DNA of 64,000 nucleotides from an uncultured Nitrososphaerota archaeon (GCA_963703285.1 OY969807.1:960001-1024000); one strand, 5' to 3'. Counted from the first letter of the stretch, positions 1,561 to 39,382 are shown. Made by a program: numbers and translations. Notes: a model not told the origin generated them from the letters alone.

Positions 1561-1736
1561 TGGACTGGGAAAGATTCCGATAGCTCGTCGTGTCATGCAA
1601 GGTTTCATATCGGGGTGGACGACGCATCTCAAACTACTCTCGATCCATCATCTATCGAAGGCAATCCATCTGACATGGTAGGGCAATGAGTGGTATACGT
1701 GTAAGTAGTCAGTCAAAGAGCGGCTCTCGAGGAATA

Positions 1737-2048
1737 GTGCCACAGTACGCCCGAATCAAGCTAACCAGCTCCAACCTTGAGCAGCTGGATGCCCTTGCCT
1801 GGGAGATCAAAGAAATCGCTGAGAAGACAGGGGTCAAATGCAAGGGCCCGCAACCTCTGCCAACGAAGAGGCTGAAGATTACTACGAGGAAAGCCCCTAC
1901 GGGGGAGGGTACGCACACGTTCGACCACTGGCAGCTCAGGATTCACAGAAGGATCCTTGACATCGAACCGAACGAAAGAACGATGCGACAGATAACGAAG
2001 CTCAGGATCCCCGAGGAGGTCAAGATAGAGATGACCCTGACCAGTTAG
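1737..2048 (+). CDS. rps10: 30S ribosomal protein uS10
   Basis: ARIKLTS...GPQPLPTKRLKITTRKAPTGEGTHTFDHWQLRIHRRILDI; GTG start at 1737 after GAGGA. Confidence 0.95.
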   Translation: MPQYARIKLTSSNLEQLDALAWEIKEIAEKTGVKCKGPQPLPTKRLKITTRKAPTGEGTHTFDHWQLRIHRRILDIEPNERTMRQITKLRIPEEVKIEMTLTS

Positions 2049-4141: not shown

Positions 4142-4726
4142 CTAGTGCCTCTCCCACATGCCAAGACGCAGAATCCTCGCATCCGAGAGCCTTACGAACT
4201 GCCGGCGCGAGCCGTACCTCTGTACCAGACTCTTGATTCCATCTGTAAAGTCCTTTGCGTCACCGAGCTCTCCGAGGAGGTTCTTGTCGAAGAGGATGGG
4301 ACGCAGAGGGCCGCCACGGTGCCTCTTGGCTACAATAGGTGCGTAGCAGGCGGAATACTTCCGGATTAGGTTGTTGATCATCGTGCGGTCCACCACCGAG
4401 ATGTCACCGGGCACGAGTATGACGGCGTCCGCGTCGCTTCTCACCTTCGAGAGACCCTCCTTGATCGAGCCGGTCTCCCCGAGCTCGAGGTTCTCGTCCA
4501 AGACAGTTTCGCACCGATAATCCTTCAGCTCGCTCCTGACCTTTTCAGAGTCCGGTCCGACCAAGACGATGACCTGTTTGGCCTTTGAGGTTTGACACTC
4601 GTACACCACGTGTCCTATCATTGTCCTTTCCCCTATCTGCTCGAGCAGTCTGTTCGTTCCGGACTTCGTGTAAAGACCCCGGGCCAATACGATAACAGAC
4701 ACGGTGACTGGGTATCCTCTGCTCAT
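4142..4726 (-). CDS. MocA/MobA-like nucleotidyltransferase (Moco cytidylyltransferase family), divergent motif
   Basis: VIVLARG...RLL, GSIKEGL, ILVPGD, PILFDK; downstream of an XDH-family operon. Confidence 0.75.
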   Translation of the reverse strand: MSRGYPVTVSVIVLARGLYTKSGTNRLLEQIGERTMIGHVVYECQTSKAKQVIVLVGPDSEKVRSELKDYRCETVLDENLELGETGSIKEGLSKVRSDADAVILVPGDISVVDRTMINNLIRKYSACYAPIVAKRHRGGPLRPILFDKNLLGELGDAKDFTDGIKSLVQRYGSRRQFVRLSDARILRLGMWERH

Positions 4727-4791
4727 CTCTTCAACTCCGGCTCGATGACGGAACCTTCCGAACTCCCGCTCGATGACTGGAGCGGGCGCAG

Positions 4792-5033
4792 CTACAGAAG
4801 TAGGTGGAATGGCGATTCACCAGCATAGAAGATGCAGATGTCAGTGTACTTGGCAGTTTTCTCCCGATACTGAAACGGTCGACGTCGTTCTCCACTACCC
4901 GGCCCTTAAGGGGCTGGAAATCCTTGCCCCTGCTGGTCACCTCGGTTGCCACCCACCTGTCCTTGTACTTCTCAGAGATTTCAGAGAGAGTGAGCTCCTG
5001 CGGTTTGGTCCCACCTGACTCCCCAGATGTCAA
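4792..5033 (-). CDS. Small conserved-type archaeal hypothetical protein, apparent 1-nt deletion near 4866
   Basis: EKYKDRWVA...DVDRFSI continues in a shifted frame as EKTAKYTDICIFYAGESPFHLLL* (stop 4792-4794); GGAGAGG RBS. Confidence 0.55.
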
Positions 5034-5053
5034 ATCGCCTCTCCTTCCTCATC

Positions 5054-6133
5054 CTAGGATGAACTACTAGCAGTGACCGTAGACTCACTAGTGGTGACCG
5101 AAGCGAGTGGGGTGAGTGAGGTGACTGGACCGATTAGGCTGCTGAGGGCCTTCTGCACGACCCCCTGAGCGATGTAGACCCGGAAGGCGTTCCCCGTGCC
5201 CGTCGTCAGCGGTGTGGCGCCAGAGAGGGCCTTGGTGGCAGCGGCCGATATCACGCTCGCGTTGAGCTGCTGGCCGTTCAGGTAGCTCTCTGCGGCCGTG
5301 GCGCGGATGGGCTTGTTGGCGACCCCTCCCAAGACCAGCCTCACGTTCGAGGCGGTGGTCCCGCTCAGGGTCGCGCTGACCGCGCAGCTGGCGAGTGCGA
5401 AGTCGATCGCGCTTCTGTCGCTCGCCTTGTAGAAGGCGCTGACCGAGCCCGACGCTGGGGCGGGGACGTTTATCGAGGTCACGATCTCGTTGTAGCGGAG
5501 GCTGTTCTCCTTGACGCGGCCGTCGACGATGCTGACTCCCGGCATGAAGGAGTCCATCGACTCGGTCGTCGAACCCCCTGGTCCCTGGATGGTCACGGTG
5601 GCGTTGAGGGCGAAGAGGGCGGGCGTTATGTCGCCCGCGTGCACTGCGTAGCAGAGGTTGCCGCCGAAGAGGCTGTGGTAGTAGCGGTTGTCGCCGTTGG
5701 GTGCGTAGCAGACGTTCCCGCCGTTGCGCCAGCAGTCGTAGTTGTTCCTCAGGTACCAGCACCAGACCTCCTGGGAGATGTCGCCCGCCACGGTCGCCTG
5801 GTTGGCGATCTGCGCGGGATGGCCGGAGACCGCGCCGTAGAGCGCACCGTAGTTCGCCTTGACGTCGGAGTTGTTGAGCAGGTCTGAGACGTTGGTGGTG
5901 GCTCCTATCGTGAGTCCCGAGCTCGAGCTGTAGCTTATGCCGCTCAGGTTGAGCCCGGTGATGTCGACGACATACTGCGGCGTGAGGAGGTCGATGTGCT
6001 CCTTCATCTGGTAGAGTAGGTCGGTACCTCCGGCGATGACCCTCGCCTGACCGCCGTACTTGGTCAGGAGCGAGACCGCGTCACTGACCGATGTTGGCTG
6101 TAGGTATCCGAATTGCGCTAATTCGTTTCTCAT
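5054..6133 (-). CDS. XDH-family FAD-binding subunit with PaoB/YagS-type 4-Cys insert
   Basis: IAGGTDL, IGATT, QIANQATVAGD, CWYLRNNYDCWRNGGNVC...LCYAVHAGD, VRLVLGGVANKP. Confidence 0.93.
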   Translation of the reverse strand: MRNELAQFGYLQPTSVSDAVSLLTKYGGQARVIAGGTDLLYQMKEHIDLLTPQYVVDITGLNLSGISYSSSSGLTIGATTNVSDLLNNSDVKANYGALYGAVSGHPAQIANQATVAGDISQEVWCWYLRNNYDCWRNGGNVCYAPNGDNRYYHSLFGGNLCYAVHAGDITPALFALNATVTIQGPGGSTTESMDSFMPGVSIVDGRVKENSLRYNEIVTSINVPAPASGSVSAFYKASDRSAIDFALASCAVSATLSGTTASNVRLVLGGVANKPIRATAAESYLNGQQLNASVISAAATKALSGATPLTTGTGNAFRVYIAQGVVQKALSSLIGPVTSLTPLASVTTSESTVTASSSS

Positions 6134-6146
6134 CTGTCTTCACCAC

Positions 6147-8531
6147 TTAGAGTTTCCCGTTCGCCTGCATCCACTGCAGCGCGGCCACAATGTCCTCCTT
6201 CCTCATTGGGACGCTCGTGAACCTGTAGCCGCCCAGGGCGTTGCTCATCGCGTTCGCTATCGCGGCCGAGGTGGCGCACAGGGAGTCCTCGCCCATCCCC
6301 TTGGCCCCGAACGGGCCCGTCGGGTCGAGGCTCTCGTAGGGGAGGCACGTGAAGCTGGAGGGTGCCTGCATGATGGTCGGTATCTTCATGTCGAGGTAGT
6401 TCGGGTTGAGGTAGCTTCCGGAACGGGCGAGACCAGTCGTCGGGTCGTTGAGCACCTCCTCGAAGAGCGCCTCGCCCATCCCGAGGCCGATGAAGGCGCC
6501 CTCGAGCTGGGACCGGGCTCCCTTCGCGAAGACGACGCGGCCTATGTCCAGCGCGCTCACGACGCTCACGACCTCGGCGTCGGCGGTCAGCGTGTCGACG
6601 GCCACCATCGCGATCTTCGTCCCGGAGTCGCGGTGCGTGAACGCGAGGCCCGGGAACTCCGAGGGGGGCCCGTACCCGGTGACTGTGAGGGGCGCGCTGA
6701 GGAGCGCCGCCGCCTGCTGGAAGGTCATCTGGTTGGAGGGGTTCGTCGTGTCGTAGATTATTCCCGAGGGCTGCGGCGAGACGCTCCCGCCGACGCCGCT
6801 GAAGCCGGCTCCGATGCCACCGCCGAACGCGAGGTTGGACGCCTTGGTGCCGGGGGCCAGGGCTGCCGCCACTATCGGGAACCACGCGCGTCCGAGGGCG
6901 GTGGCGGCGGATAGCACCCCGAGGCCGCCGGTCATCGTGCCCAGGCTGCCGAAGGTGCCGCCGGAGTCAGAGGTGACCGACGTGTCGCCAGAGTAGTATG
7001 TCACGTTCTCGAGCGAGCTGAGTCCGATGAACTGCGCCGCCAGCAGGGGAAGCGTCGTGGTGGTGCCCCCTCCCTGGTCGGACTGTCCGTTGTAGATGGC
7101 CACGCTCCCGTCGGGGTTGACGGTTATCTGGCCCCAGCAGACAGGCATGTAACCTCCCTTGTTGCAGCTCTCGAGAGCCAGGCCGACGCCGTAGCGGATG
7201 GAGCCGCTCGTCGAGCTCGGGACGCCCCAGCCCTTCCAGAGCGACGTCCAGTTGAAGGCGCTCGTTGCAGAGTTGAAGACCTGCGGCTGGGGGAGAGTGC
7301 TGTAGGGCGTGCCGGCCACGGGGTCCGTGGCTGTGGCGCTCGTCCTCATGTTGTTGAGCCTGAAGGTGACGGGGTCGATCCCGAGCTGATCCGCGAGCAT
7401 GTCTATGGTCGACTCCATCGCGAAGTGGGTCTGGCTCTCTCCGACGTCCCTCATTGGGGTGCCCATGCTGTACGCGTTGGTGCTTACGACGTACTGGTTG
7501 ATCTCGAGGTTCGGGACGACGTACGTGTTGTAGAAGTCGTCAGCGCCGTCCGTCATGCTGCCTCCGACGGCGCCCATGTTGTAGTACATGTTCACCTGCA
7601 TCGCTGTCAGGAGGCCTGCCTTCGTCCCGCCGAACGCGCAGTAGCACCTAGTGGGGAACCTGCTGTTTGTCGAGCGTGCGTCCGCGAAGCGAGTGCCAAC
7701 CCACTTGACGGGCGCGCCGACCTTCTGGGACATCGCAGCGGCGATGACGAGGTCGTTCGCGTTGGAGCTGTTGCCGAACATTCCGCCGTTGGCGGAGTGG
7801 GTTGTGCCTCCGAGGGCCACCCTGCAGACCACGTCCGAGACCGGGATCCCGAAGTAGCTCGCCAGGCTAGACTGGTCGCCGAAGGCGTAGTTGGTCCTCT
7901 CCCAGACGTAGAGCTGGCCTCCCGTCCACCAGGCGACGCAGCCGCTCGGTTCGATCTGGAAGTGCTGGAGGATTGGGTAGTCGAACCTCTGGGAGACCAC
8001 CGCGTCAGCCGCGGAGAGGGCCGACGCAGCGTCTCCGTAGGAGATCGTGACCGGCTCTGGGCCCGTCAGGCTGTTCCCTCCCGGGTAGAGCTGAGGTGCG
8101 CCAGGCTTGAGCGCCTCCTCCGGGTCGAAGACGTATGGCTGCGGCTCATAGGCAACGTCCACGAGGTCGATGCCGTCCTGGACGGTGTCAGGGTCGGTCG
8201 AAGCGACGGCCGCCACCGGCTGGCCGGCGTAGAGGACTGACCCCCTCGCCAGGGGCAGGAAATTTCGACCCTGGTTAATGAAGTTGTATGCAGGCAGGTC
8301 GGCTGCGGTCAGCACCGTGTATCCCGCTGCCTCGGCCTTGCTCACGTCGATGCTCTTGATCAGAGCGCTCGGATGGGGGCTGAGGACCCTGCCCATGTAG
8401 ACCATGCTGGAGGCCCCGATGTCGCTTGCCGAGATGTCGGCGGTCCAGTGTCTCGTCCCGTTGATCCTGTTCATGAGGTCCTGTCTCGTGACGCTGGCGT
8501 TGCCGACTAATGAGTAGGAGGAGGAAGACAT
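6147..8531 (-). CDS. XDH/aldehyde oxidoreductase family molybdopterin-binding subunit
   Basis: SPHPSALIKSID, YAGQPVAAV, IEPSGCVA, DQLGIDPVTFRLNN, DQGGGTTT, GGTFGSLG, GPFGAKGMGE (catalytic Glu); ATG at 8531. Confidence 0.95.
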   Translation of the reverse strand: MSSSSYSLVGNASVTRQDLMNRINGTRHWTADISASDIGASSMVYMGRVLSPHPSALIKSIDVSKAEAAGYTVLTAADLPAYNFINQGRNFLPLARGSVLYAGQPVAAVASTDPDTVQDGIDLVDVAYEPQPYVFDPEEALKPGAPQLYPGGNSLTGPEPVTISYGDAASALSAADAVVSQRFDYPILQHFQIEPSGCVAWWTGGQLYVWERTNYAFGDQSSLASYFGIPVSDVVCRVALGGTTHSANGGMFGNSSNANDLVIAAAMSQKVGAPVKWVGTRFADARSTNSRFPTRCYCAFGGTKAGLLTAMQVNMYYNMGAVGGSMTDGADDFYNTYVVPNLEINQYVVSTNAYSMGTPMRDVGESQTHFAMESTIDMLADQLGIDPVTFRLNNMRTSATATDPVAGTPYSTLPQPQVFNSATSAFNWTSLWKGWGVPSSTSGSIRYGVGLALESCNKGGYMPVCWGQITVNPDGSVAIYNGQSDQGGGTTTTLPLLAAQFIGLSSLENVTYYSGDTSVTSDSGGTFGSLGTMTGGLGVLSAATALGRAWFPIVAAALAPGTKASNLAFGGGIGAGFSGVGGSVSPQPSGIIYDTTNPSNQMTFQQAAALLSAPLTVTGYGPPSEFPGLAFTHRDSGTKIAMVAVDTLTADAEVVSVVSALDIGRVVFAKGARSQLEGAFIGLGMGEALFEEVLNDPTTGLARSGSYLNPNYLDMKIPTIMQAPSSFTCLPYESLDPTGPFGAKGMGEDSLCATSAAIANAMSNALGGYRFTSVPMRKEDIVAALQWMQANGKL

Positions 8532-8535
8532 TCTC

Positions 8536-9327
8536 TCACGCACCTCCCAAGTTCGTCGCCGCAAGCTGTACGGAGGCGATTATGTTCAGATAGTTGCCGC
8601 ACCGGCAGAGGTTGCCCGAGAGCGCCTGCTGTATCTGCGCCACCGTGGGGCTCGTGTTCTGCTTCAGCAGCGCCGCGGCGGCCATGATGCTGCCGGGCGA
8701 ACAGAAGGCGCACTGGCCTCCGTCGTTCTGGACCCAAGCAGCCTGAAGAGCGGCGATCACCGGGTCAGCCGGCACCGCAACTGTGCCAGTCGACGACATT
8801 GTTGGGAGGCCCCCCTCGGTCGTCAGTATCGTGTGGCCGCCTGCCCTTATCGCCGGGTACTGGCACGCCTCGTGGGCTTCGCCGTCTATCAGGACCGTGC
8901 AGGCGCCGCACGCCATCCTGTTGCACCCCATCTTGGTGCCGACGAGCCCGAGGTCTTCCCGGAGAACGGTGGCCAGCATGTCTCTCGGCTCGACCGAGAC
9001 GGTGTAGCTGGTTCCGTTGACCGTGAACGTCACCGTCTGGGCGGCGAACGGGTTGGCCGCTGCAGCCGCAGGCACAGCCGGCACCGACGAGGTCTGCTGT
9101 ATGCCGCTCCCCGAGGTCTGCAGGACACCCCCTCGCAGCGCCAGGGCGGATACGCCCACGACGGCGCCCGCCGCCATGGTGCCCTTGAGAAGCGTGCGTT
9201 TGCTTACCTTAGTTTCCAAAATCTTCTCGACCGGTCCTGCAGACTCGCCGACCTTCTGGGAAGGTATCTTGTTCGGAGTGCTTGCCTTCTTCCGAACGCG
9301 TTTCGTACTTTTGTCAGTATCTGTCAA
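8536..9327 (-). CDS. XDH-family [2Fe-2S] subunit with Tat-type signal (PaoA/YagT-like)
   Basis: SKRTLLKG plus hydrophobic stretch; GTKMGCNRMACGACTVLIDG; GQCAFCSPG; GNLCRCG. Confidence 0.94.
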   Translation of the reverse strand: MTDTDKSTKRVRKKASTPNKIPSQKVGESAGPVEKILETKVSKRTLLKGTMAAGAVVGVSALALRGGVLQTSGSGIQQTSSVPAVPAAAAANPFAAQTVTFTVNGTSYTVSVEPRDMLATVLREDLGLVGTKMGCNRMACGACTVLIDGEAHEACQYPAIRAGGHTILTTEGGLPTMSSTGTVAVPADPVIAALQAAWVQNDGGQCAFCSPGSIMAAAALLKQNTSPTVAQIQQALSGNLCRCGNYLNIIASVQLAATNLGGA

Positions 9328-9360
9328 CGTCTGTCAACAATTGACTGTACTTGTCAACAT
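9311..9360. promoter_or_regulatory. Helically phased YTGTCA(AC) repeats plus GTCAA-N3-TTGAC inverted repeat
   Basis: YTGTCA at 9311, 9321, 9331 and 9351; inverted repeat 9333-9345; overlaps the start of the XDH operon. Confidence 0.55.
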
Positions 9361-9793
9361 AGACGTATTTGTCGAGTTCCCCGTATCCATTCGGGCCCCT
9401 CTCACAAATGAGACGAGAGGACTCGAGGACAACTAGCGGCAGGAGACCGTCGCGCGACCCGCTGTCTGGACGGAGCGCACCTGTATCCGAAGTCTGCGAG
9501 GGCAGCAACCGAATTGACCACTCCAAGCGAAAGGGCCTTCGTCTTGGTCTCAATCCTTAATCTGCCCAAATCGGCTCCCTTTGTGTCAAACGAGTCGCAA
9601 ATGGCCTTATCTTCAATTCCGAACACAAAAACCGAAAAAGGCTAAACACCGCCTAGTTTTCAAATCAGAGCTGTATCCTGGCTGTTTTCGAGTTTTCACC
9701 TAAACACATACCAAAGTTCTTGCCATCAACGAGCTTCTTCACCTTATCAGGTAATTCAATGGCGAAACATGAACCTCTTTCAAGAGCAGAGTT

Positions 9794-9988
9794 TTAGGAT
9801 TTGCGCTCCGGCATGTGCCATGTTCTGGTCGCCAACGAAGCGTAACGTTGGAAAAGAATGTGGGCCGGAACGGGTGTAAACTGTAGTAGAGCTTGGGTCT
9901 CCACTTCCAATTGCCAATCGTGCCACTGCTTGTCGACTTTCAGCGTCGGCCTCTCCTTGATGATTACTCTTGTAGGTTGGGTGCTCAA
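9794..9988 (-). CDS. Small hypothetical protein (64 aa)
   Basis: AAGGAG upstream of TTG; co-oriented between regulator and XDH operon; no recognisable motif. Confidence 0.4.
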   Translation of the reverse strand: MSTQPTRVIIKERPTLKVDKQWHDWQLEVETQALLQFTPVPAHILFQRYASLATRTWHMPERKS

Positions 9989-10104
9989 GCGCCGGCCGTC
10001 TCCTTCCCCCCTGCAACTCGCAAAATCGCCTACTGATTCTCAAAACTCTACGACACTTCGAAGGGGCCCGCCGGTGAACGACCTTCTTGAGGCGAACAGA
10101 CGAG

Positions 10105-10692
10105 CTATGAGACCTTTCTCCTTGAGGCTGTCATCATGATCGTCCCCCGGTTTATTTCGTGTTTGGCTACGTCGTAGCCGTAGCCGTTGAGAACCGACCG
10201 CAGGAAAGCAAAGGAGCACTCGGTTGATTCAATCTTCCTTCCAGCGCCGACTATGTTGATCTCCACCACGTCGTCGCCTTGCAGCTTGGAAACGGTGAAC
10301 CGTTTTATTGGGATCAGCAGGGTGAAGTCTCTTGCGAGGTCTGCGAGTTCGTTCAGGTCCTTGGCACCGGCCTTGAGGATACCAACGGTGTTACTCCCTA
10401 GCGCGGTGAACATAGCAAGCAGACCCTCCTTGTCCTCGGCGTACATCCTCGCGAGGATCTCGTCGACGAAGTCGGAAGGGAGGGTGATCACATCTATCTG
10501 CTTCATCAGGGAGACTGAACGCCATAGCCTGTAGAGCTCCGCGGGATCTCCGCCTTCTGCTGATATCTTTGACATCGTCGAGAGAGACTGGTTTGCGAAC
10601 GCAAACATGGTTCTCTCCCTTCGTTTTGCCTCGGAGGAGAACTCCTCAAAAATCTTGTGATCGATGAAGATGCTGGCACGCGACATGAACAC
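10105..10692 (-). CDS. Putative regulator (N-terminal ribbon-helix-helix-like), paralog 1
   Basis: RASIFIDHKIFEEFSSEAKRRERTMFAFANQSL; collinear and highly similar to 18554-19228. Confidence 0.75.
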   Translation of the reverse strand: MFMSRASIFIDHKIFEEFSSEAKRRERTMFAFANQSLSTMSKISAEGGDPAELYRLWRSVSLMKQIDVITLPSDFVDEILARMYAEDKEGLLAMFTALGSNTVGILKAGAKDLNELADLARDFTLLIPIKRFTVSKLQGDDVVEINIVGAGRKIESTECSFAFLRSVLNGYGYDVAKHEINRGTIMMTASRRKVS

Positions 10693-11047
10693 TCATCACT
10701 CTGACACAAGGGATTAATGGTTATCCCTTTTAAAAACGCTTAGTTTTGTATTAAACCTTCTTTTTCTTCTTTCTTCAATTTCAGAAAAAGATATGTCTCC
10801 TTCTGTCCATCTATATGTTGCATCTTCACCGGTCCCTGTTTCCTTTTGCTCTGACGCCATACATCGTCAAATGTCTACGAACGTACACAAGCATAAACAT
10901 ATTATCCCGAATGGGTTCGAGTATGTTATCAAGAAATTACTTCACCCCTACTGAAGGCGAGTAAACTAGGCCAAAATCTGTGCTCGACTGGGCTCTGAGC
11001 TTCCGACCACTCCTCTTCTCCTCTTCTTCTACTATCTTATAGAAAGG

Positions 11048-11593
11048 ATGGGGAATCTTTCGGAGAATCTCTCGACCGTAATTGACCTTCTGGTAGCAGC
11101 GCTCTTCCTATCCGCTGGGGCTCTGGCGATAGAGCCAAGAATCCAAGACCGGAGGCAAGTGGGCGCTGTCGTCGACGACCTTAAGAGTCCGGAGGTGCGA
11201 TTGAACGTGCAACTCAAGTTGAAGGCAGAAGTAACGAAGCTGGTTTCGACTGAAGAGGCGAAGATGATTCTGCATAACTTCCCGACTCTTCTACCTATGA
11301 TTAACGGCCTCACGCTGATGAACGAGAACGAAGCCCTAAGTCGAGAACTCGAAGCGAGCGAGGCGATTCTCGTGGACACGATCGTCGGTGGAGGGTGTGG
11401 GGCATCCTCCTATCAATCTCGAGCACAGCAGTTAGCGATCGATGCCATAAGGACGATGACTCTTCCCAAGGATGCAAAGATGGTCAGGAGGCCCAAATCA
11501 CTGCCGGGCCCGCCTACGTTACTGTCAAAGTACGGACTTGCACCTCATCCGTCAATGCTGCCGCTGGACGAGGGGCCCGTAATCTACCCTTGA
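11048..11593 (+). CDS. Hypothetical membrane-anchored protein
   Basis: 181-aa ORF with N-terminal hydrophobic helix; no motif recognised. Confidence 0.5.
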   Translation: MGNLSENLSTVIDLLVAALFLSAGALAIEPRIQDRRQVGAVVDDLKSPEVRLNVQLKLKAEVTKLVSTEEAKMILHNFPTLLPMINGLTLMNENEALSRELEASEAILVDTIVGGGCGASSYQSRAQQLAIDAIRTMTLPKDAKMVRRPKSLPGPPTLLSKYGLAPHPSMLPLDEGPVIYP

Positions 11594-12052
11594 CGCCGTA
11601 AAGAGCCCATTTCACGGCCAAGGACTACCTCAGGAGGAGCATCGTTCAAGCCCGATAAACGAACTACATGTCTGTTCGGGCGCAAAGAGTTTGCCATGAG
11701 ACCAACGATCCGCGGCCCGGGCTCGAACCTCCGCACTATACCAAGACGCGGATTTGCACACCAAAGTGGTCGGATCCACCGGCCCTACCAACGATTCAGA
11801 CTTTCCGAAGAACGAATCTGGTGGTTGACCTATATAAGATGCCGTGACTGTCGCACGACTCTAATTGAGCTTTCCAGTCATTTTGTCCCCCGGTATGTTG
11901 ATCGCCCTTCCTTTGGAACAGATAGCCCTGGTTGGTTAATCGGTCTACAGAGATGATTACGGTATCCATCCAGGATCACTGATTCTCATATGTACGCGAT
12001 CCTAGCATGGGAACATTGGTCAAGCCTATCATCAGGACCCAAATGCTCTACT

Positions 12053-12469
12053 CTATCCGCCTGTCATCGACCCAAGGAAAGCCACAGTGTCTCCGTTCTT
12101 GAGCATTGGATTGCCTTGCGGAGGCGTTCCATTCAACAGAATCTGCATAGAATGCATGGTTTCTAATGCCGGGTGTTCCTGACAGACCTCTGTAATCAAC
12201 TGGGAAAGGGATGACGGGGCGGATATTTGCATGTTTTCCATGCTCGACCCAATTACACCCGCCATGCCAAGGTAGTAGACTTCGACGTTCAGGAAGAGTT
12301 GCGCGCTAAGGGGGGGACTCTTATCCGTACCTGATTGCGGTTGATGATTCTGTGAGAGGAAAATAAGCAGCCCCTTCGTGCCCAGCAGAGCAACGGATGC
12401 GCCGGCTGTTATGATGACCATCTTACCCAATGCTTCGCGCCTTGTTAACTTTGACAAGCTATGGGACAT
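12053..12469 (-). CDS. MoaD/ThiS/SAMP ubiquitin-like protein with N-terminal twin-arginine signal
   Basis: KLTRREALGK plus TM segment; VEVYYLG...ILLNG...LKNGDTVAFLGSMTGG ending in GG. Confidence 0.85.
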   Translation of the reverse strand: MSHSLSKLTRREALGKMVIITAGASVALLGTKGLLIFLSQNHQPQSGTDKSPPLSAQLFLNVEVYYLGMAGVIGSSMENMQISAPSSLSQLITEVCQEHPALETMHSMQILLNGTPPQGNPMLKNGDTVAFLGSMTGG

Positions 12470-12478
12470 CTCTCTCCG

Positions 12479-12979
12479 TTACAGAGTGAAAGTGCAATTG
12501 CCTTCGTTTGTGACCATCTGCACGATGAGTGACTGGTTGTTCGATAAGACGCCTAGGTACAGCGTGGCATCCTCACCTGGTAGAATAGTTGCACTACAAA
12601 GGCCGCCAGTGTCCATATTCCAATGCTGCGCCTGAGGGAATATGAGGCCGTTTGTGGGTGCTTCGCAGAAAGAGGAAGTGTTGTTGACCGCGAGCAACGG
12701 AACGCCCCCTCCGAGCACTCCTTGAATCAAGGGCTCCCCGTTCGAGATAACTTTGAGAATCGTCAGGTTCTCGTTTCCTAGGTTTGTCAGGGTCAGTGAA
12801 GGTTCGCTGCTGTTGCAACAATTGCCGTATCCCACTAGCTTGAGTTGTGGTGTGTTCTGACTCGCGGGTGGGTCCCCAGTGAAGTAAATCTGGGACAGCG
12901 TGATAGACGCGAGCAGCAATACCAGGGGCAGAACAACAACGAGCAGCTTTGCGAAGGCGCCAATCTTCTTATTTGTCAA
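12479..12979 (-). CDS. Membrane-anchored extracellular Ig/pilin-like protein
   Basis: N-terminal TM, LTLTNLGNENLTILKVISNG, several Cys; overlaps the upstream gene. Confidence 0.65.
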   Translation of the reverse strand: MTNKKIGAFAKLLVVVLPLVLLLASITLSQIYFTGDPPASQNTPQLKLVGYGNCCNSSEPSLTLTNLGNENLTILKVISNGEPLIQGVLGGGVPLLAVNNTSSFCEAPTNGLIFPQAQHWNMDTGGLCSATILPGEDATLYLGVLSNNQSLIVQMVTNEGNCTFTL

Positions 12980-13973
12980 CCTTAGCTCTCCTCTTTTTTG
13001 TTACAAGAACGTGTACCAGCGCGAACCCTATCACCCCGTAGACTGAAGCGAGGACCAAAATGAAAATGCTCACCACGACTGCGGTTGGGATGGGTGGTAC
13101 TCCTACCAGTCTGAGGTCGACGGAACTTCCCTGACCACTAACGTAGGGCGATGCGGAATCCGTCGCGGATGGATCGTTTTGAATGGCGGCAGTCACGTTG
13201 CTTGCCCCGTAGCTCTTGCTTCCCGAGTAGGAGGCGTAAAGGAGTCCTCCCCATTGGGAAGGCAACTGGTAAGTCAGATAGGCGGTGCCATTTGACTGAG
13301 TTTGGCTCGAGCCGATAGCCATTAGCCCGAAGTCGGTAGGTATGGAGAAGTCGACTTGAGCACCTGCAATGGGAGCCCCGTTGGAATCGGTCAGTCCAAC
13401 GGCAGCAAGAAGCTCGTCGCCATGAACGTTCATGGAAAGCGCGCTCAGTTTCGTACTGGTAGTCGTCGTACTGGTAGTACTGCTGGTGCTGGTGGTGCTG
13501 GTGCTCGTTGAGCTGCTGGTGGTTGTGCTGCTGCTCCCGGTTGAGCCGGATGAGCTAGTAGTGCTTTGTTGGGCAGGCGTTACGATGAACCAGCCGTTCT
13601 GCATGTTGGCCATTCCGAGACAGGGTATGATGCAGTGAATTCTGAATGTTCCCGCCGCATTCGCCGTAAATTGAACCACTGAAATCGGGCTCTGCGCGTT
13701 AAGAACCGCCGAGGTGACGTTGTATCCATCGACCTCAATTTGATGGGCGTTATACGGTACGTTGGTGTCGTTCCAGACGAATTTGATTATCACAGTGTCC
13801 CCTTGGGAGACCGGACCTAGCGTGAAGTTTCCCGATGTTCCGTTGAAGCCAGCTTCGCTCACGTAGACAGTGAAGCTATCCGTAGCGCTTGTCTTCTGAG
13901 CCGCGGTAAGATGCGAAGGCTGCATTACCAGCAGCAGAAGTACAAGCAGGGAGATTGTGAAGATTTTACGCGT
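12969..13973 (-). CDS. Membrane-anchored cupredoxin (CuA-like) plus Ig domain; probable ACG start
   Basis: HQIEVDGY...AGTFRIHCIIPCLGMANMQNG; S/T linker; C-terminal TM plus KKRR; signal peptide RKIFTISLLVLLLLV in frame upstream of the first ATG (13925). Confidence 0.8.
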   Translation of the reverse strand, partial: TRKIFTISLLVLLLLVMQPSHLTAAQKTSATDSFTVYVSEAGFNGTSGNFTLGPVSQGDTVIIKFVWNDTNVPYNAHQIEVDGYNVTSAVLNAQSPISVVQFTANAAGTFRIHCIIPCLGMANMQNGWFIVTPAQQSTTSSSGSTGSSSTTTSSSTSTSTTSTSSTTSTTTTSTKLSALSMNVHGDELLAAVGLTDSNGAPIAGAQVDFSIPTDFGLMAIGSSQTQSNGTAYLTYQLPSQWGGLLYASYSGSKSYGASNVTAAIQNDPSATDSASPYVSGQGSSVDLRLVGVPPIPTAVVVSIFILVLASVYGVIGFALVHVLVTKKRRAKVDK

Positions 13974-15924
13974 TTGTGTCCGCCTCCATGGAGTTTGCTA
14001 TCTTCATTAGCTTGGGAAGCGCGAGGTTCGCAAATATTGAGCATCTCCTTCCGTTCGACCACCACTGGAGCTGTCCGGGCTCGGCTGGTTGTCCGGCCTG
14101 TTTCGACGACGCTCGTGTGAAACCTGCGTGCCCTTCAACAGTTATCCTGTCATAGCCCTTTGGCAAAAAGGCGGGAGGACTATCGATGACATCCTCTTTT
14201 ATCTGAAGGATCGCGATATCCACACTGTCGGTGTAGATGTTGAGCGGTTCCATCGATTCGCTAGTGTAGAGAAGGCCGACCATGGCTCCGTCGGCGGAGA
14301 TTCTCGCTTCGTGAAGGGTAGCTCCTTCAGGAAGAGATGATGGAAAAGAAACGAAAAACGACGCCTTAGTCCTCGCTTCCTCCTGACTGATTAATTCGCC
14401 AATGCTGGACAGCTGCACCTTCTCTTGATTGATAGGCTCTTGACTGACAGAATTCGCGGTATCTTTGTTCTGCATATCAGAAGGAAGGAAGCTGAGAGCG
14501 GCGATCCCTGCGGTCAGCCCTACGGCAGCGACCAGGCCATTTCTGAGGAATGCTCGCCTTCCGGTGGATTGGGGCGCTTCAGGGTCGCTGCCTGAATAAG
14601 TTGCCAGCGCGGGTGGGATAATCGGCGCTCTAGCGACAGTGTCCCCGTCGCCCTCGTTGACCTCCCAGATTGAGATCATTGGTACTAGCCTGCTCACGAT
14701 AATCAACAGCAGAGCGACGCCCGCAAACCCAGCGGCGGTAACCGAGAGCTCCTCCCAAGAGGGAATGTAGCTCCCAACTGCATATGGCAACCCGAGCTGC
14801 GGAACAGCTAGGGCCGGAATCACTATCAGAAAACGTTCCAGCCACATCCCGATGTTTGCGAGTATCGCGGCCACGACTATCCAGCCAACTCTCCTCGTCA
14901 CAGGGAGCGATATGATTGCCGCGGGCAGGATCAACCCGCCCACCAACATGAACCAGAAGTAGGGAGCGTAGGCACCCGTGAACAACGACGTCAAGTATTG
15001 AACGTCCAACGTTTCAGAAGACCAAGAGGGTGCCATGTATTCACTCAGCGTGAGATAGATCATCGCCAAGTCCGCTGCAAGGAAGATGTATGCCAGATAC
15101 AGAAAGTGCTTAACCTCTATGTACCGCTCAAGGTGATAGAACCTGCGGAAAGCATAGACGACAATCAATATCGTCGCGAGGCCGGAGTAGACTGCACCCA
15201 TGACGAAGAATATCGGGAAGATTGTGCTGTGCCATTCGACCCTGAGGGTAACAGAAAACACCCAGGAGAGAACGGAATGCACTGTGACCGCGATTGGCAC
15301 GACGAGTATCGCCATAATCTTGATGGACTTGTTCAACCTGCTCGCCTGCTCGGCTCCGCCTGACCAGCCTAGAGAGAGCCTAGTGTAGAGCCAACCTCTC
15401 AGCTTTGAGACTTTCTTCAGGGAATCTCTGCAGATGGCGAGGTCTGGGATGAGTGGCAGGTAGAAGTAGAGCAAGCTCGCCACAAGATACGTAACTATTG
15501 CGATTGTGTCCCATGTTATGGGCGACTGTAACCTGGGGAAGATTAGGAGGTTGATTGCCCTCTGGGGCATGCCCAGGTCCAGTATTGGAAATAAGGCACC
15601 TATCGGGAGAGAGCAGATAGTTATCATCTCTGCGATTCGCGTTATTGGTCTCCTCCATGTTGCGTTGGAGAGCCTGAGGATTCCGGAGATTATTGTCCCT
15701 GCCATGCTTATCGCTATGAAATAGACGAAGTCGACTATGTTCAGGCCCCATGCTACAGGAAGCCTGTCTCCCGTCAACCCAAGACCGTAGACATACTCAA
15801 GGTAGAACGCGTAGAGGCCCCATCCTATCACCGCAACCAACGAGGTCACAATAAGGAAGAATCGAAAACCGTGGGACTTCAGAGGTCCCAAGATCGACTG
15901 TGTATCTTTCTCACTATCTGTCAT
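13966..15924 (-). CDS. NrfD/PsrC/ActC-family polytopic membrane protein with fused C-terminal extracytoplasmic domain
   Basis: WGLNIVDFVYFIAIS, WRRPITRIAE, DLGMPQR, SPITWD, VHSVLSW, WHSTIF, GMWLERFLIV; internal GRRAFL plus TM. Confidence 0.92.
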   Translation of the reverse strand: MTDSEKDTQSILGPLKSHGFRFFLIVTSLVAVIGWGLYAFYLEYVYGLGLTGDRLPVAWGLNIVDFVYFIAISMAGTIISGILRLSNATWRRPITRIAEMITICSLPIGALFPILDLGMPQRAINLLIFPRLQSPITWDTIAIVTYLVASLLYFYLPLIPDLAICRDSLKKVSKLRGWLYTRLSLGWSGGAEQASRLNKSIKIMAILVVPIAVTVHSVLSWVFSVTLRVEWHSTIFPIFFVMGAVYSGLATILIVVYAFRRFYHLERYIEVKHFLYLAYIFLAADLAMIYLTLSEYMAPSWSSETLDVQYLTSLFTGAYAPYFWFMLVGGLILPAAIISLPVTRRVGWIVVAAILANIGMWLERFLIVIPALAVPQLGLPYAVGSYIPSWEELSVTAAGFAGVALLLIIVSRLVPMISIWEVNEGDGDTVARAPIIPPALATYSGSDPEAPQSTGRRAFLRNGLVAAVGLTAGIAALSFLPSDMQNKDTANSVSQEPINQEKVQLSSIGELISQEEARTKASFFVSFPSSLPEGATLHEARISADGAMVGLLYTSESMEPLNIYTDSVDIAILQIKEDVIDSPPAFLPKGYDRITVEGHAGFTRASSKQAGQPAEPGQLQWWSNGRRCSIFANLALPKLMKIANSMEADTNA

Positions 15925-16712
15925 TGTGTATCACCCTTTGGAGGAAGATAGATGACCTGCGGAAGTGTACCATATTCTTCATTCAGTCTGTAAGCGCCCC
16001 GCTTCTCTATCATACCGCTCAGAGAGACAGCGACCTGTCCGTTGCTTATCACGTCCTGTGCTGCGTCTCCGAACCAGAGAGCGCTCATTCCTGCCGCGCT
16101 GCATGCGGCCACACACGCAGGGACGTCGCCTTCCGTGACCCTGTGTCTGCACCAAATACATTTTTCAGCTACACCCTTTCTGTGTGGGACGTTAGTGTCG
16201 GGCGAGTAGACAACGTTAGCTTCGTCCGGAGTCACGGGTGGGTCGAACCAGTTGAAGAACCTCCTTTCGTAGGGACAGGCTACAAGACAGTACCTACAGC
16301 CGACGCATCTGTCTTGGTCAATCAGCACGATATGGTCGTCACTGTAGAAGGTGGCTCCAACCGGGCAGACCTTGGCGCATGGGGCGTCTTGACAGTTCTG
16401 ACAAGGCACAGGCATGAATACACCACCGCCGACGTCGAAGACCTGAATCCATGCCTGTCTGCCATCATACTGCATTTCGCCATCCCACGCCGGTGGCACG
16501 TCCATTTCAGCCTGACAAGCTTCGGTACACTTGCTGCAACCATCACAGTTGTTAAGGTCTATGACAAAGACGTACTGCTTGCTCGCGTCTGAAGAGCTTT
16601 CGGAGACCGCTGCACTTGCTTTCGGGAGGAGACTACCGGACGCAGCGCAAAGCGTCAGACCTGCAGCGGCCGCCGAGGCACCGACCAAGAATTTCCTCCT
16701 TTCTGGATCCAA
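15921..16712 (-). CDS. NrfC/DmsB-type 4x[4Fe-4S] electron-transfer protein with Tat signal
   Basis: ERRKFL; CDGCSKCTEAC; CQNCQDAPCAKVCP; CVGCRYCLVACPY; KCIWC...PACVAAC. Confidence 0.95.
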   Translation of the reverse strand: MDPERRKFLVGASAAAAGLTLCAASGSLLPKASAAVSESSSDASKQYVFVIDLNNCDGCSKCTEACQAEMDVPPAWDGEMQYDGRQAWIQVFDVGGGVFMPVPCQNCQDAPCAKVCPVGATFYSDDHIVLIDQDRCVGCRYCLVACPYERRFFNWFDPPVTPDEANVVYSPDTNVPHRKGVAEKCIWCRHRVTEGDVPACVAACSAAGMSALWFGDAAQDVISNGQVAVSLSGMIEKRGAYRLNEEYGTLPQVIYLPPKGDTQ

Positions 16713-16739
16713 GATCGAAAACCCGTTTGGATCGATGCA

Positions 16740-18272
16740 TCAAGCTCCTTGCTTGGTAGTCCCTCTGCGCAAAGCCATGAACGACGTGCCAATGGCAATG
16801 ATGGCTATGAGCGCGGCAATTGCACCAACAATCAGACCTGTTGTGTCAGTTGTGTCGGACGATGTTGTTGTCTGAGCAACGGTCGTCGTCACGAGCACAA
16901 ATGTTGTTGTCTGGGCTACGGTCGCTGTCTGAGTTATGGTTGTTGTCTGAGGTACGGTCGCTGTCTGAGTTATGGTTGTTGTCTGAGGTACGGTCGCTGT
17001 CTGAGTTATGGTTGTTGTCTGAGGTACGGTCGCTGTCTGAGTTATGGTTGTTGTCTGGGCTACGGTCGTTGTTGTTACGCTACTGATGGTAATCACTGTG
17101 CCGGAAATCGGAACTTTCACAGTCGAGTCCATCACGTTTCCGCCCACTGAGGTACTATTTGCATTGATTATGTCGATGCCGTAGTACTCGTTGTGGAAGC
17201 TGTTGTCAGTAATCAGTGAATTCACCACCGCAACAGACTTCAAGGTGGATTCTCCGCCCACGATTATTCCACTTAGCGTTGGAGCGGAGCCGTCATTGCT
17301 GAGCACATTCCCGCTGATGATCTCATCCTTGTTTACGGCTCCAGCCGCATTCGCATGCAGAATGATGCCGCCCTCCCCTGTGTTGACGACTGTATTCGAG
17401 AGGACACTACTGCCTGATACTTGTGTATTGGCGTCATCAGCCGCTACAACTATGCCCGCAATATCGTCTACTACCATGTTGTTGCTGATTATGGTGTTCG
17501 ATACTCCCTCGCCCGGGTCATAGGCAGAAAGGACGATGGAGCAGGCGCCGGTGTTGTCTATGTCCGAGTTGCCGGTGATGATGTTACCATTAGCTGGATT
17601 TGGAGTCCCGGTTGGAATGCCCGCGCTAGGTATTGCAGTACTGTTCCAGGAGGGGTCAACTGCCCCATCGTCGTCGACGCCTATTCCTCCGGCGTAATTT
17701 CCTATCACGGTGTTGTCAGCTACCGTGGAGTTCGAGGTGCCTGTCAGCTCGATCGCCTTATTTTCGTCAATCGTAGAAAGGGGAGTCACACCATTGCCAG
17801 TAACTACATTGTCTTGGATTGCTACACCAGAGCTATCCTGTACATAGACGCCATGGTTGTTTGCGTTCTCAACCGTAAGGCCTTGAATTACCGACCCGGC
17901 TGCCGTAGAACCGAATATGGCAATCCCATTAGGCTGACCAGCCGCGTTGATGATTGTATTTGATGGCTCTGAGCTTTGAGATTCGAGCGCAAGTTTCTTC
18001 GAAATCGTCACCATCTCGTTGTATGCGCCAGGAAGGACAATGATGGTAGCACCAGTAGGTGCGACCGAGACCGCGTGAGAAATTGTCGCGTAGGGGCTAG
18101 CGAGGGTACCCGTCCCACTTGTATTGCTGCCCGTCGTGCTTACGTACAGTACAGTTGCCGCAGCACTTGCGGGCCGGACAAGAAGAACGCCGGCCGAAAA
18201 AGCAAAGAGGAGAATTAAGCATACTACTACGGGCATTGTTGTGCGTATATGCGGCTTCACGTTCTGGTGCAT
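16740..18272 (-). CDS. Secreted right-handed beta-helix protein (NosD/pectin-lyase-like) with Thr-rich stalk and C-terminal anchor
   Basis: Signal peptide; LYVSTTGSN..GT..SPYATISHAV; repeated IxxNxxxxN turns; C-terminal TM. Confidence 0.85.
   Translation of the reverse strand: MHQNVKPHIRTTMPVVVCLILLFAFSAGVLLVRPASAAATVLYVSTTGSNTSGTGTLASPYATISHAVSVAPTGATIIVLPGAYNEMVTISKKLALESQSSEPSNTIINAAGQPNGIAIFGSTAAGSVIQGLTVENANNHGVYVQDSSGVAIQDNVVTGNGVTPLSTIDENKAIELTGTSNSTVADNTVIGNYAGGIGVDDDGAVDPSWNSTAIPSAGIPTGTPNPANGNIITGNSDIDNTGACSIVLSAYDPGEGVSNTIISNNMVVDDIAGIVVAADDANTQVSGSSVLSNTVVNTGEGGIILHANAAGAVNKDEIISGNVLSNDGSAPTLSGIIVGGESTLKSVAVVNSLITDNSFHNEYYGIDIINANSTSVGGNVMDSTVKVPISGTVITISSVTTTTVAQTTTITQTATVPQTTTITQTATVPQTTTITQTATVPQTTTITQTATVAQTTTFVLVTTTVAQTTTSSDTTDTTGLIVGAIAALIAIIAIGTSFMALRRGTTKQGA
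16905..17070. repeat. 36-bp coding tandem repeat (QTTTITQTATVP, about 4 copies)
   Basis: gttatggttgttgtctgaggtacggtcgctgtctga units; no spacers. Confidence 0.9.
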
Positions 18273-18553
18273 GGAAACGCATGCGGAACGTGCACTAAAA
18301 ACCTCATCCGTTTAGATGCGTACTTTCGCACAAAATTGTATGCAGACCCGCGCATTCCGAGTTGCAAACAACCCAAGGTAACTTCGAACTTACCCATCCT
18401 TTGAAAGTCAACCAACCTAGGGACAATCTCTGTACGTTTAATGGCGTTCTCGTGCGAGAAATCATGTGTTTAGGCGTTGGTTGGTGTAATTTCTTCACTC
18501 GATTGAACCACTCGATTGAACTGAAGACGGAGCCTCCGATGACAGCGAGGTGG

Positions 18554-19228
18554 CTAGGATAACCTTCTCTTGGAGGCCCTCACCATAATCGTGCCTATGT
18601 TTATGTCGTGGTTCGTCACCGTATACCCGTAACCATTGAGAATAGACTGTAGGAAGACGAATGAGCACTCGGTAGACTCTATCCTTCTTCCGGCCCCAAC
18701 GATCCCAATCTCTACGGAGTCATCTTTTTGGGACTGAGATATCTTGAACTGCTTTATGGGCAGGAGCGCAGTGAAATCTGTTGCGAGAGCCGCGAGTTCG
18801 CTGAGGTCCTTGGCGCCAAATTTGAGGACTCCAACCAACTCGCTCCCCAGGTCGCTAAACATCTTGAGGAGGCCTTCCTTATCCGATGCGTACTCCCTCG
18901 CAATCAGCCTGTCCACGAAATCTGACGGAAGGGTAATGATGTCTGTCTGCTTCAGCAGGGCGATGGAGCGCCAGAACTTATAAAGGTCTGAAGGCTCTCC
19001 CCCCTCTGCGGTTATCTTCGCCATCGCAGATAGTGACTCGTTCGCGAACGCGAACAAGGTCTTGTCCTTTCGCTTCGCTTGAGCGGAGAACTCTTCGAAG
19101 ACGGCTTGATCCACCGAGAGATTAACCCGCGCCACGAACCCCTTGTGTCGCGAAACCGTGGATTTATCGATATCCTCGCCAGTAGTTCCGGGTTCACCTT
19201 CCGATATTTGCCCGGCAACTTCGGTCAT
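18554..19228 (-). CDS. Putative regulator (RHH-like), paralog 2
   Basis: RVNLSVDQAVFEEFSAQAKRKDKTLFAFANESL...ITLPSDFVD...GAGRRIESTECSF. Confidence 0.75.
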   Translation of the reverse strand: MTEVAGQISEGEPGTTGEDIDKSTVSRHKGFVARVNLSVDQAVFEEFSAQAKRKDKTLFAFANESLSAMAKITAEGGEPSDLYKFWRSIALLKQTDIITLPSDFVDRLIAREYASDKEGLLKMFSDLGSELVGVLKFGAKDLSELAALATDFTALLPIKQFKISQSQKDDSVEIGIVGAGRRIESTECSFVFLQSILNGYGYTVTNHDINIGTIMVRASKRRLS

Positions 19229-20674: not shown

Positions 20675-20765
20675 TGCCCCGGGCGGGATTTGAACCCGCG
20701 CTCATCGACTCGAAAGGCCGACATACTTGACCGGGCTGCACGCACGAGCTCTGTACTACCGGGGC
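20675..20765 (-). tRNA. tRNA-Glu(TTC) with 15-nt D-loop intron (20736-20750)
   Basis: GCCCCGG/CCGGGGC acceptor, TCGGC CT-TTC-GA GTCGA, GCGGG TTCAAAT CCCGC; BHB GUAC/GUGC with AG|A and AG|C; 76 nt after splicing. Confidence 0.92.
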
Positions 20766-39286: not shown

Positions 39287-39382
39287 GGGCCCGTAGCTCA
39301 GTACGGACAGAGTGGCAGCCCCCTAAGCTGTAGGGAGATCGTTATCTCGCAGAGGCCGAGGGTTCAAATCCCTCCGGGCCCG
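39287..39382 (+). tRNA. tRNA-Arg(CCT) with 21-nt variable-loop intron (39334-39354)
   Basis: GGGCCCG/CGGGCCC, GCAGC CC-CCT-AA GCTGT, GAGGG TTCAAAT CCCTC; BHB CUGU/GCAG, GAGAU/AUCUC hairpin; 75 nt spliced. Confidence 0.92.

Follow-up and report, generated by a model that had tools for sequence, protein, structure and literature searches.

We analysed a 64,000-nucleotide stretch of DNA from an uncultured Nitrososphaerota archaeon (OY969807.1:960001-1024000 of GCA_963703285.1; hereafter the window, with positions counted from its first letter), in which an operon at 12053-18272 (operon A) encodes, in order of transcription, a beta-helix protein, a 263-amino-acid (aa) NrfC-like protein, a 652-aa NrfD-like protein, a 318-aa copper subunit, a 166-aa protein and a 138-aa ThiS-like protein. 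We propose, with a probability of about 0.6, that operon A specifies a self-contained, haem-free quinol:copper-protein oxidoreductase that works in the manner of alternative complex III (ACIII). The proposal draws on homologies, conserved ligands, synteny and co-occurrence, the lack of partners with molybdenum (Mo) or haem, and a structure prediction for the complex that clears its controls. A preliminary description of this DNA had joined operon A to a neighbouring operon of the xanthine dehydrogenase (XDH) family (operon B) as a minimal copper-based analogue of ACIII. The haem-free, Mo-free NrfC/NrfD/cupredoxin module related to ACIII withstood the analysis, whereas its link to the XDH operon did not.

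The NrfC- or ActB2-like subunit (15921-16712; this and all window coordinates below are on the minus strand unless stated otherwise) matches Pfam Fer4_11 (1.3e-16) and starts with the sequence ERRKFLVG, a putative signal for twin-arginine translocation (Tat) that the Pfam TAT_signal model scores under its cut-off (E 0.094). Its four groups of four cysteines correspond to four cubane iron-sulfur (Fe-S) clusters, and 16 of 16 cluster cysteines are invariant or nearly so across 36 sequences. The closest solved relative is ActB of 6f0k (E 2.9e-29), with an alignment confined to residues 793-959, the C-terminal Fe-S half. The downstream NrfD gene (13966-15924; Pfam NrfD, 5.2e-34) encodes in its residues 1-445 (14590-15924) an ActC-like, quinone-reactive membrane subunit. 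A phmmer search with NrfD against all PDB chains returned the ActC chains 6lod_C (7.5e-61), 6f0k_C (9e-57), 8k9e_C (4.4e-53) and 6btm_C (3e-50), followed by ActF (0.0016); at E values up to 1 nothing beyond ActC and ActF was found, the polysulfide reductase subunit PsrC being absent.

Residues of NrfD were mapped by HMMER alignment to R. marinus ActC, using the residue list in Table 2 of PMC8076601. The N-side channel retains 12 of the 13 ActC residues. At the quinone (Q) site Ser164 and Asp169 are retained and His139 is replaced by Asp, and on the P side Glu326, Glu394 and the gate residue Arg395 are retained, with Tyr270 changed to Phe, Tyr323 to Thr and Glu338 to Asp. Section 5 of the same article, a 2021 survey, treats ActC, ActF, DsrP and haloarchaeal DmsC as one group and, within that section, lists ActC and ActF from bacterial phyla only.

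The copper subunit (12969-13925) consists of a cupredoxin head (aa 11-120), a Ser/Thr linker, an Ig-like domain (aa 155-250) and a C-terminal membrane helix. Its own Pfam search gave no significant family (Big_1 at 1.4e-4 lay under the cut-off); among 61 aligned homologues, Cupredoxin_1 was found in 18, Big_1 in 52 and a fused cytochrome c in one. An exhaustive HMMER search of 1.84 billion proteins with residues 1-120 yielded 143 representatives, mostly of 300-400 aa. In the AlphaFold model, which has a mean predicted local distance difference test score (pLDDT) of 83.7, the cupredoxin (aa 11-120) is confident, the linker is disordered and the helix spans aa 278-317. The Foldseek single-domain matches of low root-mean-square deviation (rmsd) are to the CuA domain of NosZ (rmsd 2.2-2.7 over ~100 columns, 20-24% identity), and VIA-align places 2iwf_A (NosZ CuA domain) at Z 12.6 and the ba3 CuA subunit 1ehk_B at Z 10.3, with other cupredoxins tied at Z 10-13. 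On the strength of these models the cupredoxin fold of the head is settled.

The putative metal ligands of the head are strongly conserved: across the 61 homologues His61 is present in 61, Cys98 and Cys102 in 60 each, and at position 105 there are 32 with Met and 27 with His. The CuA ligand pattern is His ... Cys-x3-Cys-x3-His-x2-Met. In the window's own protein the loop reads Cys-x3-Cys-x2-Met-x2-Met. Across the family His61 and Cys98-x3-Cys102 agree with the CuA pattern, and the Cys-x3-Cys spacing resembles that of CuA; the departure is that the next ligand follows after two residues. At related Mo-less loci the same position in the gene string is occupied by a protein that keeps the Ig-like domain and the helix and carries a different head. 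DOMON heads are encoded at L100 (7.1e-13), L104 (5.2e-16) and, weakly, L108, a CxxCH segment is found at L105, and cytochrome c together with cupredoxin at L103; DOMON or cytochrome c heads occur in Thermoplasmatota, Thermofilaceae and Chloroflexota. Because the swapped heads are electron-carrier domains, the cupredoxin head is expected to carry electrons as well, and this exchange is our main argument for that role.

The preliminary description had proposed multimer modelling of NrfC, NrfD, the cupredoxin and the XDH subunits. NrfC aa 45-263, ActC aa 1-445 and the copper subunit, each with its own alignment, gave a three-chain complex with a median score of 0.62, compared with 0.34 for the best control, and thus passed the controls; 58 of 80 solved complexes attain the mark used for this score, as do 2 of 110 mismatched pairs. 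The runs had at least 69% of contacts in common, with a partner pLDDT of at least 70. In the predicted complex the copper-subunit helix (aa 285-310) packs against ActC residues 128-211, while the Ig-like domain and the juxtamembrane segment contact NrfC.

A homologue search with the single NrfD protein found no relative, whereas a search with an alignment found 574; 80 loci were fetched and 70 were annotated by an open reading frame (ORF) caller. A conserved core of the Tat-type Fe-S protein, NrfD, the copper subunit and a small membrane protein is present in Nitrososphaerota, Bathyarchaeia and Caldarchaeales. Among 60 relatives of the source genome (G000), a close ActC-like gene was detected in G011, G021, G029, G052 and G053 (44-62% identity) and a full-length copper subunit, also present in G000, only in G011, G021, G052 and G053 (two copies); partial copper-subunit matches came from G019 and G029, the ActC-like gene of G029 lying on a cut contig. 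The two genes are adjacent wherever the contig allows. In an even sample of the phylum the copper subunit occurs in 6 of 401 genomes, G000 included, and within the genus of the window any NrfD match at all was obtained in 3 of 22 other genomes.

The majority of the bacterial loci have a different order, comprising a pentahaem protein, a ~820-aa protein with a twin-arginine (RR) start, a 227-aa NrfC without RR, an ActC-like protein, a small ORF and a tetrahaem protein; at L112 the 821-aa protein is a true molybdenum-bis(pyranopterin guanine dinucleotide) (Mo-bisPGD) subunit (PF00384, 4.7e-33). The RR start is on the Mo subunit in these Mo-type loci, whereas in the Mo-less loci NrfC is longer and has an RR start of its own, as expected for an NrfC that is exported alone. 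A quick maximum-likelihood tree of 81 ActC-like NrfD rows, rooted at the midpoint and supported by the Shimodaira-Hasegawa-like approximate likelihood ratio test (SH-aLRT), separates the two groups. The Mo-less clade (22 rows, SH-aLRT 100) holds all 10 rows with a copper-type subunit, all 5 with another head on the Ig-like anchor, 6 unclassified rows and a single row labelled 'heme'; these rows represent Nitrososphaerota, Bathyarchaeia, Thermoplasmatota, Thermofilaceae, Chloroflexota, Actinomycetota, Planctomycetota and one Bacteroidota genome; the second clade comprises 51 bacterial rows ('Mo+heme' 40, 'heme' 9, 'other' 2). In the literature on NrfD/ActC, alternative complex III, blue copper and archaea, we found no published description of a haem-free NrfCD/cupredoxin or DOMON module.

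The source genome is a single contig of 2.25 Mb that is 96% complete, which allowed catalytic partners to be sought throughout. A DMSO-reductase-family subunit encoded elsewhere had been named beforehand as the finding that would speak against an NrfCD pair without such a partner; the contig contains 0 matches to PF00384, a search whose control was positive in 11 of 14 genomes, and a single match to PF03916 (NrfD). The absence of the CxxCH haem motif from the module was likewise borne out (0 of the 13 proteins of the two operons and their upstream genes), and among stop-to-stop frames of at least 80 aa in the whole genome none has two or more CxxCH motifs.

The aerobic chain of this genome comprises one COX1 (haem-copper oxidase), two cytochrome b genes and three Rieske proteins, and for this reason we regard the module as an addition and not a replacement. 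The idea that it stands in for a missing complex III was rejected, as both cytochrome b genes have Rieske genes alongside. In G011 and G021 two large secreted proteins precede NrfC, and their homologues in the source genome (42-47% identity; 452 and 603 aa, no family; G000:C1:2010186-2013321, or L184 4199-7373) lie directly upstream of Rieske and cytochrome b genes; an Atlas look-up of the 603-aa protein gave scores of at most 0.82. Relatives of this pair are also found beside the module in the second copy of G053 and at L100, L132 and L145. At one Bathyarchaeota locus (L189 93-8146, minus strand) a distance of 1.8 kb separates Rieske and cytochrome b genes from an NrfC/ActC/copper-subunit/small-protein string on the same strand. 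The links through COX1, the secreted pair and L189 are compatible with a quinol-oxidising role beside complex III. The module is an accessory complex, because it is rare, patchy, foreign in base composition and placed beside two ordinary Rieske/cytochrome b complexes.

From this evidence we infer copper binding, the direction of electron flow, the acceptor and proton pumping as follows. Quinol would be oxidised at an outer-face pocket of the ActC-like NrfD subunit, and the Tat-exported NrfC-like subunit, with its four Fe-S clusters, would then relay the electrons to the next carrier, a putative two-cysteine (CuA-like) copper centre in the cupredoxin head. A flexible Ser/Thr-rich linker would tether the head to an anchor of Ig-like domain and membrane helix that docks on ActC and NrfC, and the head would deliver the electrons to an acceptor outside, for which the A-type haem-copper oxidase is the likeliest candidate. 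Movement of protons in the same step is suggested by the conserved channel residues of ActC.

Several observations weigh against this proposal. In NrfD, the channel residue His97 is replaced by Met and the Q-site residue Asp253 of ActC by Val. In the copper subunit the axial position 108 is Leu in 53 of 61 homologues and the ligand loop is one residue shorter than that of canonical CuA, so the site could be mononuclear or serve another metal; the head also matches the fold of the CupA copper chaperone (Z 9.9). The cupredoxin head lies outside the confident interface of the predicted complex, a placement that fits a head on a leash. The prediction itself, with self-made alignments and three chains, differs from the setting in which its score was calibrated, part of the pass may be recall of the ActB-ActC structures already solved, and the score comes from a model and is no measurement. 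The NrfD tree was built without PsrC, HybB, DsrP, reference ActC rows or outgroup families. The two Rieske/cytochrome b complexes leave no gap for the module to fill. COX1 is present in 11 of 11 module-bearing genomes searched (G000 and 10 others), compared with 146 of 401 in the phylum sample, but the holders are related genomes that fall into some five families, and in two of these families COX1 is universal, so that this support is modest.

The opposite direction of flow, as in Qrc and DsrOP, would have an unnamed extracytoplasmic donor reduce the head or the Fe-S subunit and NrfD reduce quinone. The best NCBIfam models are those of such systems, DsrO for NrfC (1.6e-51; 175 with a cut-off of 200) and DsrP for NrfD (6.4e-24; 85 with a cut-off of 350), then QrcC and QrcD for the pair, all of them under their cut-offs; the Asp at the Q-site position of ActC His139 is shared with the DsrP and QrcD types (Table 2 of PMC8076601), and large secreted proteins are encoded beside the module in six independent loci. 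By a wide margin, however, the solved relatives are of the quinol-oxidising ActC type, the heads belong to kinds typical of high-potential carriers, and a haem-copper oxidase is encoded in every module-bearing genome searched. We therefore consider this direction unlikely.

Operon B bears on a second alternative. Its small subunit (8536-9327; Fer2_2 3.1e-22, Fer2 2.6e-7) has two [2Fe-2S] domains and a putative Tat signal of the KR variant, SKRTLLKG, that Pfam TAT_signal scores under its cut-off (0.008). The Mo-binding large subunit (6147-8564; MoCoBD_1 2.7e-47, MoCoBD_2 5e-32) has as best solved relatives 1rm6_A (1.7e-46), 7dqx_A (2.1e-46) and PaoC (2.7e-35), and stands at much the same distance from 4-hydroxybenzoyl-CoA reductase, a nicotine-pathway dehydrogenase, an aldehyde oxidase and PaoC. 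The flavin adenine dinucleotide (FAD) subunit, XdhM (5054-6133; FAD_binding_5 2.7e-32, plus CO_deh_flav_C), carries an insertion with four Cys of the PaoB type, which align with those of 5y6q_B (1.8e-39) and PaoB 5g5g_B (1.2e-30). It is followed by a small ORF without a family (4731-5033) and by a MobA/MocA-like nucleotidyltransferase (4142-4726; NTP_transf_3 3.4e-21), probably an enzyme for nucleotide addition to the molybdenum cofactor. These family matches and the four-Cys insertion agree with the earlier account of operon B as a PaoABC-like enzyme with a Tat signal, a MocA-like gene and no membrane acceptor of its own. The genome encodes nine XDH-family large subunits and six Tat-type operons of this same gene order; the Tat motif of the XdhS small subunit has KR or RR in all six paralogues and follows S/T-RR-x-L-[LMI]-KG in three. 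Paralogues of the small ORF follow XdhM in every paralogous operon (tblastn matches at 947, 203, 776, 1220 and 2098-2101 kb, with extra tandem copies at 2098-2101 kb), and its first ~60 residues are conserved in all six.

According to the preliminary description, the exported PaoABC-like enzyme oxidises an outside substrate and passes electrons through NrfC and the copper protein to NrfD and quinone, in one chain across both operons. The two operons are indeed adjacent and co-oriented, each behind a paralogue of the same upstream gene; the FAD subunit retains the four Cys of the PaoB-type surface [4Fe-4S] cluster, which would suit hand-over to a protein partner, and operon B encodes no membrane acceptor. 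The upstream family is also associated with both kinds of gene, as three of its six paralogues lie beside XDH operons, one beside the module at NrfC, one beside a 669-aa protein with a Tat-like signal and one in an unclear place. Against this, the genome has six Tat-type XDH operons and one module, and the G+C content (GC) is 63.2% in operon B compared with 52.7% in operon A. In relatives the two are distributed independently, the outcome named beforehand as speaking against a single chain. If only matches that start no later than the signal are counted, 11 of the 60 relatives have Tat-type XdhS-like genes (53-66% identity in G001, G002, G009, G010, G014 and G036, 52% in G021 and ~40% in G011, G016, G017 and G018) and 5 have the module; both are found only in G011 and G021, there on different contigs. 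Neither XdhS nor XdhM has a match beside any of the other 23 Mo-less loci examined, and at one locus, fetched twice, an XdhL-like gene (28% identity) is 6.5 kb away. The potentials of copper, DOMON and cytochrome c heads are usually higher than the potential of menaquinone. Flow from such a high-potential head to quinone would be uphill, which makes the proposed direction towards quinone thermodynamically less likely. The adjacency that suggested a chain from outside oxidation to quinone with a molybdoenzyme is seen in this genome only, and we consider such a chain clearly improbable. Operon B is best described as an independent exported molybdoenzyme and not an obligate partner; the neighbourhood looks like chance, and the shared upstream gene family is the sole remaining tie between the two operons.

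It is very improbable that the cupredoxin-like head serves in Cu(I) binding or delivery, as in CupA, or as a structural domain, with NrfC and NrfD providing, for example, reductant for the maturation of surface proteins: the loop of the window's protein does hold the Cys/Met set typical of Cu(I) sites, CupA is among the fold matches, thioredoxin-like and DsbD-like genes lie downstream at L025 and the upstream beta-helix protein resembles NosD, but His61 is invariant, position 105 is His in half of the family, the head is replaced elsewhere by DOMON or cytochrome c, both electron carriers, and the beta-helix protein is no conserved neighbour of the module.

The remaining genes of operon A are less constant than the core of the proposed oxidoreductase. 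The first (16740-18272; Beta_helix 3.3e-12, NosD 7.1e-7) encodes a membrane-anchored surface protein with a right-handed beta-helix and with Thr-rich repeats; it was rejected as a core component, since a homologue is beside 0 of 24 related Mo-less loci. The last 207 residues of the NrfD gene (13966-14589) form a C-terminal extension with a motif of the SRRxFL type (GRRAFL in the window, RR invariant in 8 of 8 sequences), one helix and an extracytoplasmic alpha/beta domain of ~150 aa. G011 and G021 encode it as an ORF of its own, and G053 and Bathyarchaeia have it fused; the SRRxFL twin-arginine motif is retained inside the fused ActC plus C-domain proteins (L024, L186-L189) and at the start of the split forms. 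AlphaFold models its residues 57-207 with pLDDT >90, fold matches are middling (MucB/RseB, Z 9.5-9.0; PsbP-like, Z 7-8), and neither a Pfam family nor a cofactor motif was found in it. The 166-aa protein (12479-12979), small and N-terminally anchored, accompanies the copper subunit, with homologues directly after that subunit at ten loci (L022, L023, L024, L027, L098, L166, L186-L189). It had been labelled Ig-like; the gene is present, and the family search was empty.

The ThiS/MoaD-like beta-grasp protein (138 aa; 12053-12469) has TRREAL near its start and a C-terminal Gly-Gly, and scores 22.1 bits for ThiS (cut-off 22.5), with relatives reaching 30.9 and 35.1 bits. Its family of 112 clusters usually combines an RR signal, a variable linker and the beta-grasp domain, and 27 of 29 aligned members, the window's included, end in GG. 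Besides the window, the gene adjoins the module at 5 of 13 other loci (G011 and four Bathyarchaeia); a sixth has a distant NrfC/NrfD pair 6 kb off, and 7 of the 13 have neither NrfC nor NrfD within 9 kb. Elsewhere the gene follows one whose secreted product has 470-536 aa. The module-bearing genomes G021, G029, G052 and G053 yielded no full-length copy, and this, together with the 7 loci, led us to reject it as an obligatory subunit. The exported ubiquitin-like protein of the preliminary description is thus real as a ThiS/MoaD-like protein with a twin-arginine motif, judged from its sequence; it often adjoins the module but does so too inconsistently to count as a fixed part of the system.

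The upstream genes regA (18554-19228) and regB (10105-10692) are paralogues, one before each operon as first noted, with 64% identity between them; regB is 91% identical to a paralogue at 777 kb beside another XDH operon, and regA homologues flank the module in G011 and G021. Neither Pfam nor NCBIfam assigns regA a family, Pfam likewise gives none for regB, and the label of regulator comes down to a language-model lead in the Atlas to ribbon-helix-helix clusters (RHH_1, score 0.92), so that paralogy holds and a regulatory role is putative. The paralogue at G000:C1:394298-397230 is divergent from the gene for the 669-aa protein, whose Tat-like start is TRRGFVKG. The family may go with exported enzymes in general.

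The thirteen genes of the two co-oriented operons and their upstream genes all lie on the minus strand at the places originally claimed. The genome has a GC of 60.6%, and the fifth percentile of its 5-kb windows is 53.7%. Because of the contrast in GC, and because a TnpB-like gene and a tRNA-like fragment lie beyond regA, operon A has the look of acquired DNA and operon B that of native DNA; an island, if present as the preliminary description had it, would carry operon A alone. The TnpB/Cas12f-like gene (21576-22853; Cas12f1-like_TNB 6.9e-10) flanks the low-GC stretch with operon A. The tRNA-like match (20675-20736) is from Rfam only (32.7 bits) and is not detected by ARAGORN; with the TnpB/Cas12f-like gene it may mark an insertion boundary beyond operon A. 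Elsewhere in the window a tRNA-Arg(CCT) gene (39287-39383, plus strand) is 97 nt long, with room for an intron, and a gene for a TATA-binding protein is present, which identifies the host as an archaeon. The S10-like ribosomal protein gene (1686-2048, plus strand) has its nearest named relatives in uncultured Nitrososphaerota/Thaumarchaeota metagenome-assembled genomes (MAGs) from soil and peat, with 89% identity to Ca. Gagatemarchaeum; single MAGs of relatives contain two or three distinct loci that resemble it, which suggests S10 paralogues in the host lineage. The main text of PMC10640624 portrays the Gagatemarchaeaceae as aerobic heterotrophs that possess an A-type haem-copper oxidase; a term search of that main text found no mention of NrfD, polysulfide, xanthine (dehydrogenase) or complex III, and its supplements, which lay outside the search, may list such genes.

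More tentatively, the module may belong to a wider family of Fe-S/ActC-like cores that oxidise quinol and move protons without Mo or haem c, each with a swappable cupredoxin, DOMON or cytochrome c head on an anchor of Ig-like domain and helix. Such a family would owe its spread in aerobic archaea and some bacteria to gene transfer, would have secreted partners in common with Rieske/cytochrome b complexes and, in some lineages, would occur with a Tat-exported Gly-Gly ubiquitin-like protein. If the proposal is correct, a third kind of quinol-oxidising complex, in addition to Rieske/cytochrome b and bacterial ACIII, exists in some aerobic archaea, one that does without haem c and molybdopterin and has a tethered copper centre at its end, and the module would offer a minimal system for the coupling of quinol chemistry to proton movement by NrfD and a natural case of electron-carrier heads being swapped on one anchor. 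It would also bear on the replacement of cytochrome c by copper proteins in Nitrososphaerota.

Among known systems, operon B resembles E. coli PaoABC (5g5g) and the Methylobacillus aldehyde oxidase (5y6q) in its three subunits, the Tat signal on the [2Fe-2S] subunit, the four extra Cys in the FAD subunit and the MocA-like gene alongside; it differs from PaoABC in that the NCBIfam scores are far under the cut-offs (PaoA, 114.6 bits with a cut-off of 322; PaoC, 176.7 with a cut-off of 1180) and the large subunit is equally close to other enzymes. The module of operon A shares its top NCBIfam models and the Q-site Asp with DsrOP of DsrMKJOP and QrcCD of QrcABCD; unlike those complexes, it scores far under the equivalog cut-offs, has no DsrJ or Qrc cytochromes and has no DsrMK nearby. 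The bacterial molybdoenzyme clusters with an ActC-like anchor, such as L112, contain the nearest bacterial NrfD (42-48% identity) and NrfC (33-41% identity), but differ in having a true PF00384 subunit that bears the Tat signal, several cytochromes c and an NrfD of a separate clade. With ACIII (6f0k, 6btm, 6lod, 8k9e) the module has in common an ActC-type NrfD with most of the channel residues, a periplasmic-side, four-cluster Fe-S module like the C-terminal half of ActB, an extra single-helix subunit and a presumed quinol:acceptor oxidoreductase activity. Unlike ACIII, it is without the molybdopterin-like domain ActB1, the pentahaem ActA, the monohaem ActE and the second NrfD (ActF), its electron exit is a tethered cupredoxin and its host is an archaeon. 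Because four defining features of ACIII are absent, the module is not a member of ACIII, although it is like ACIII in the way it would work.

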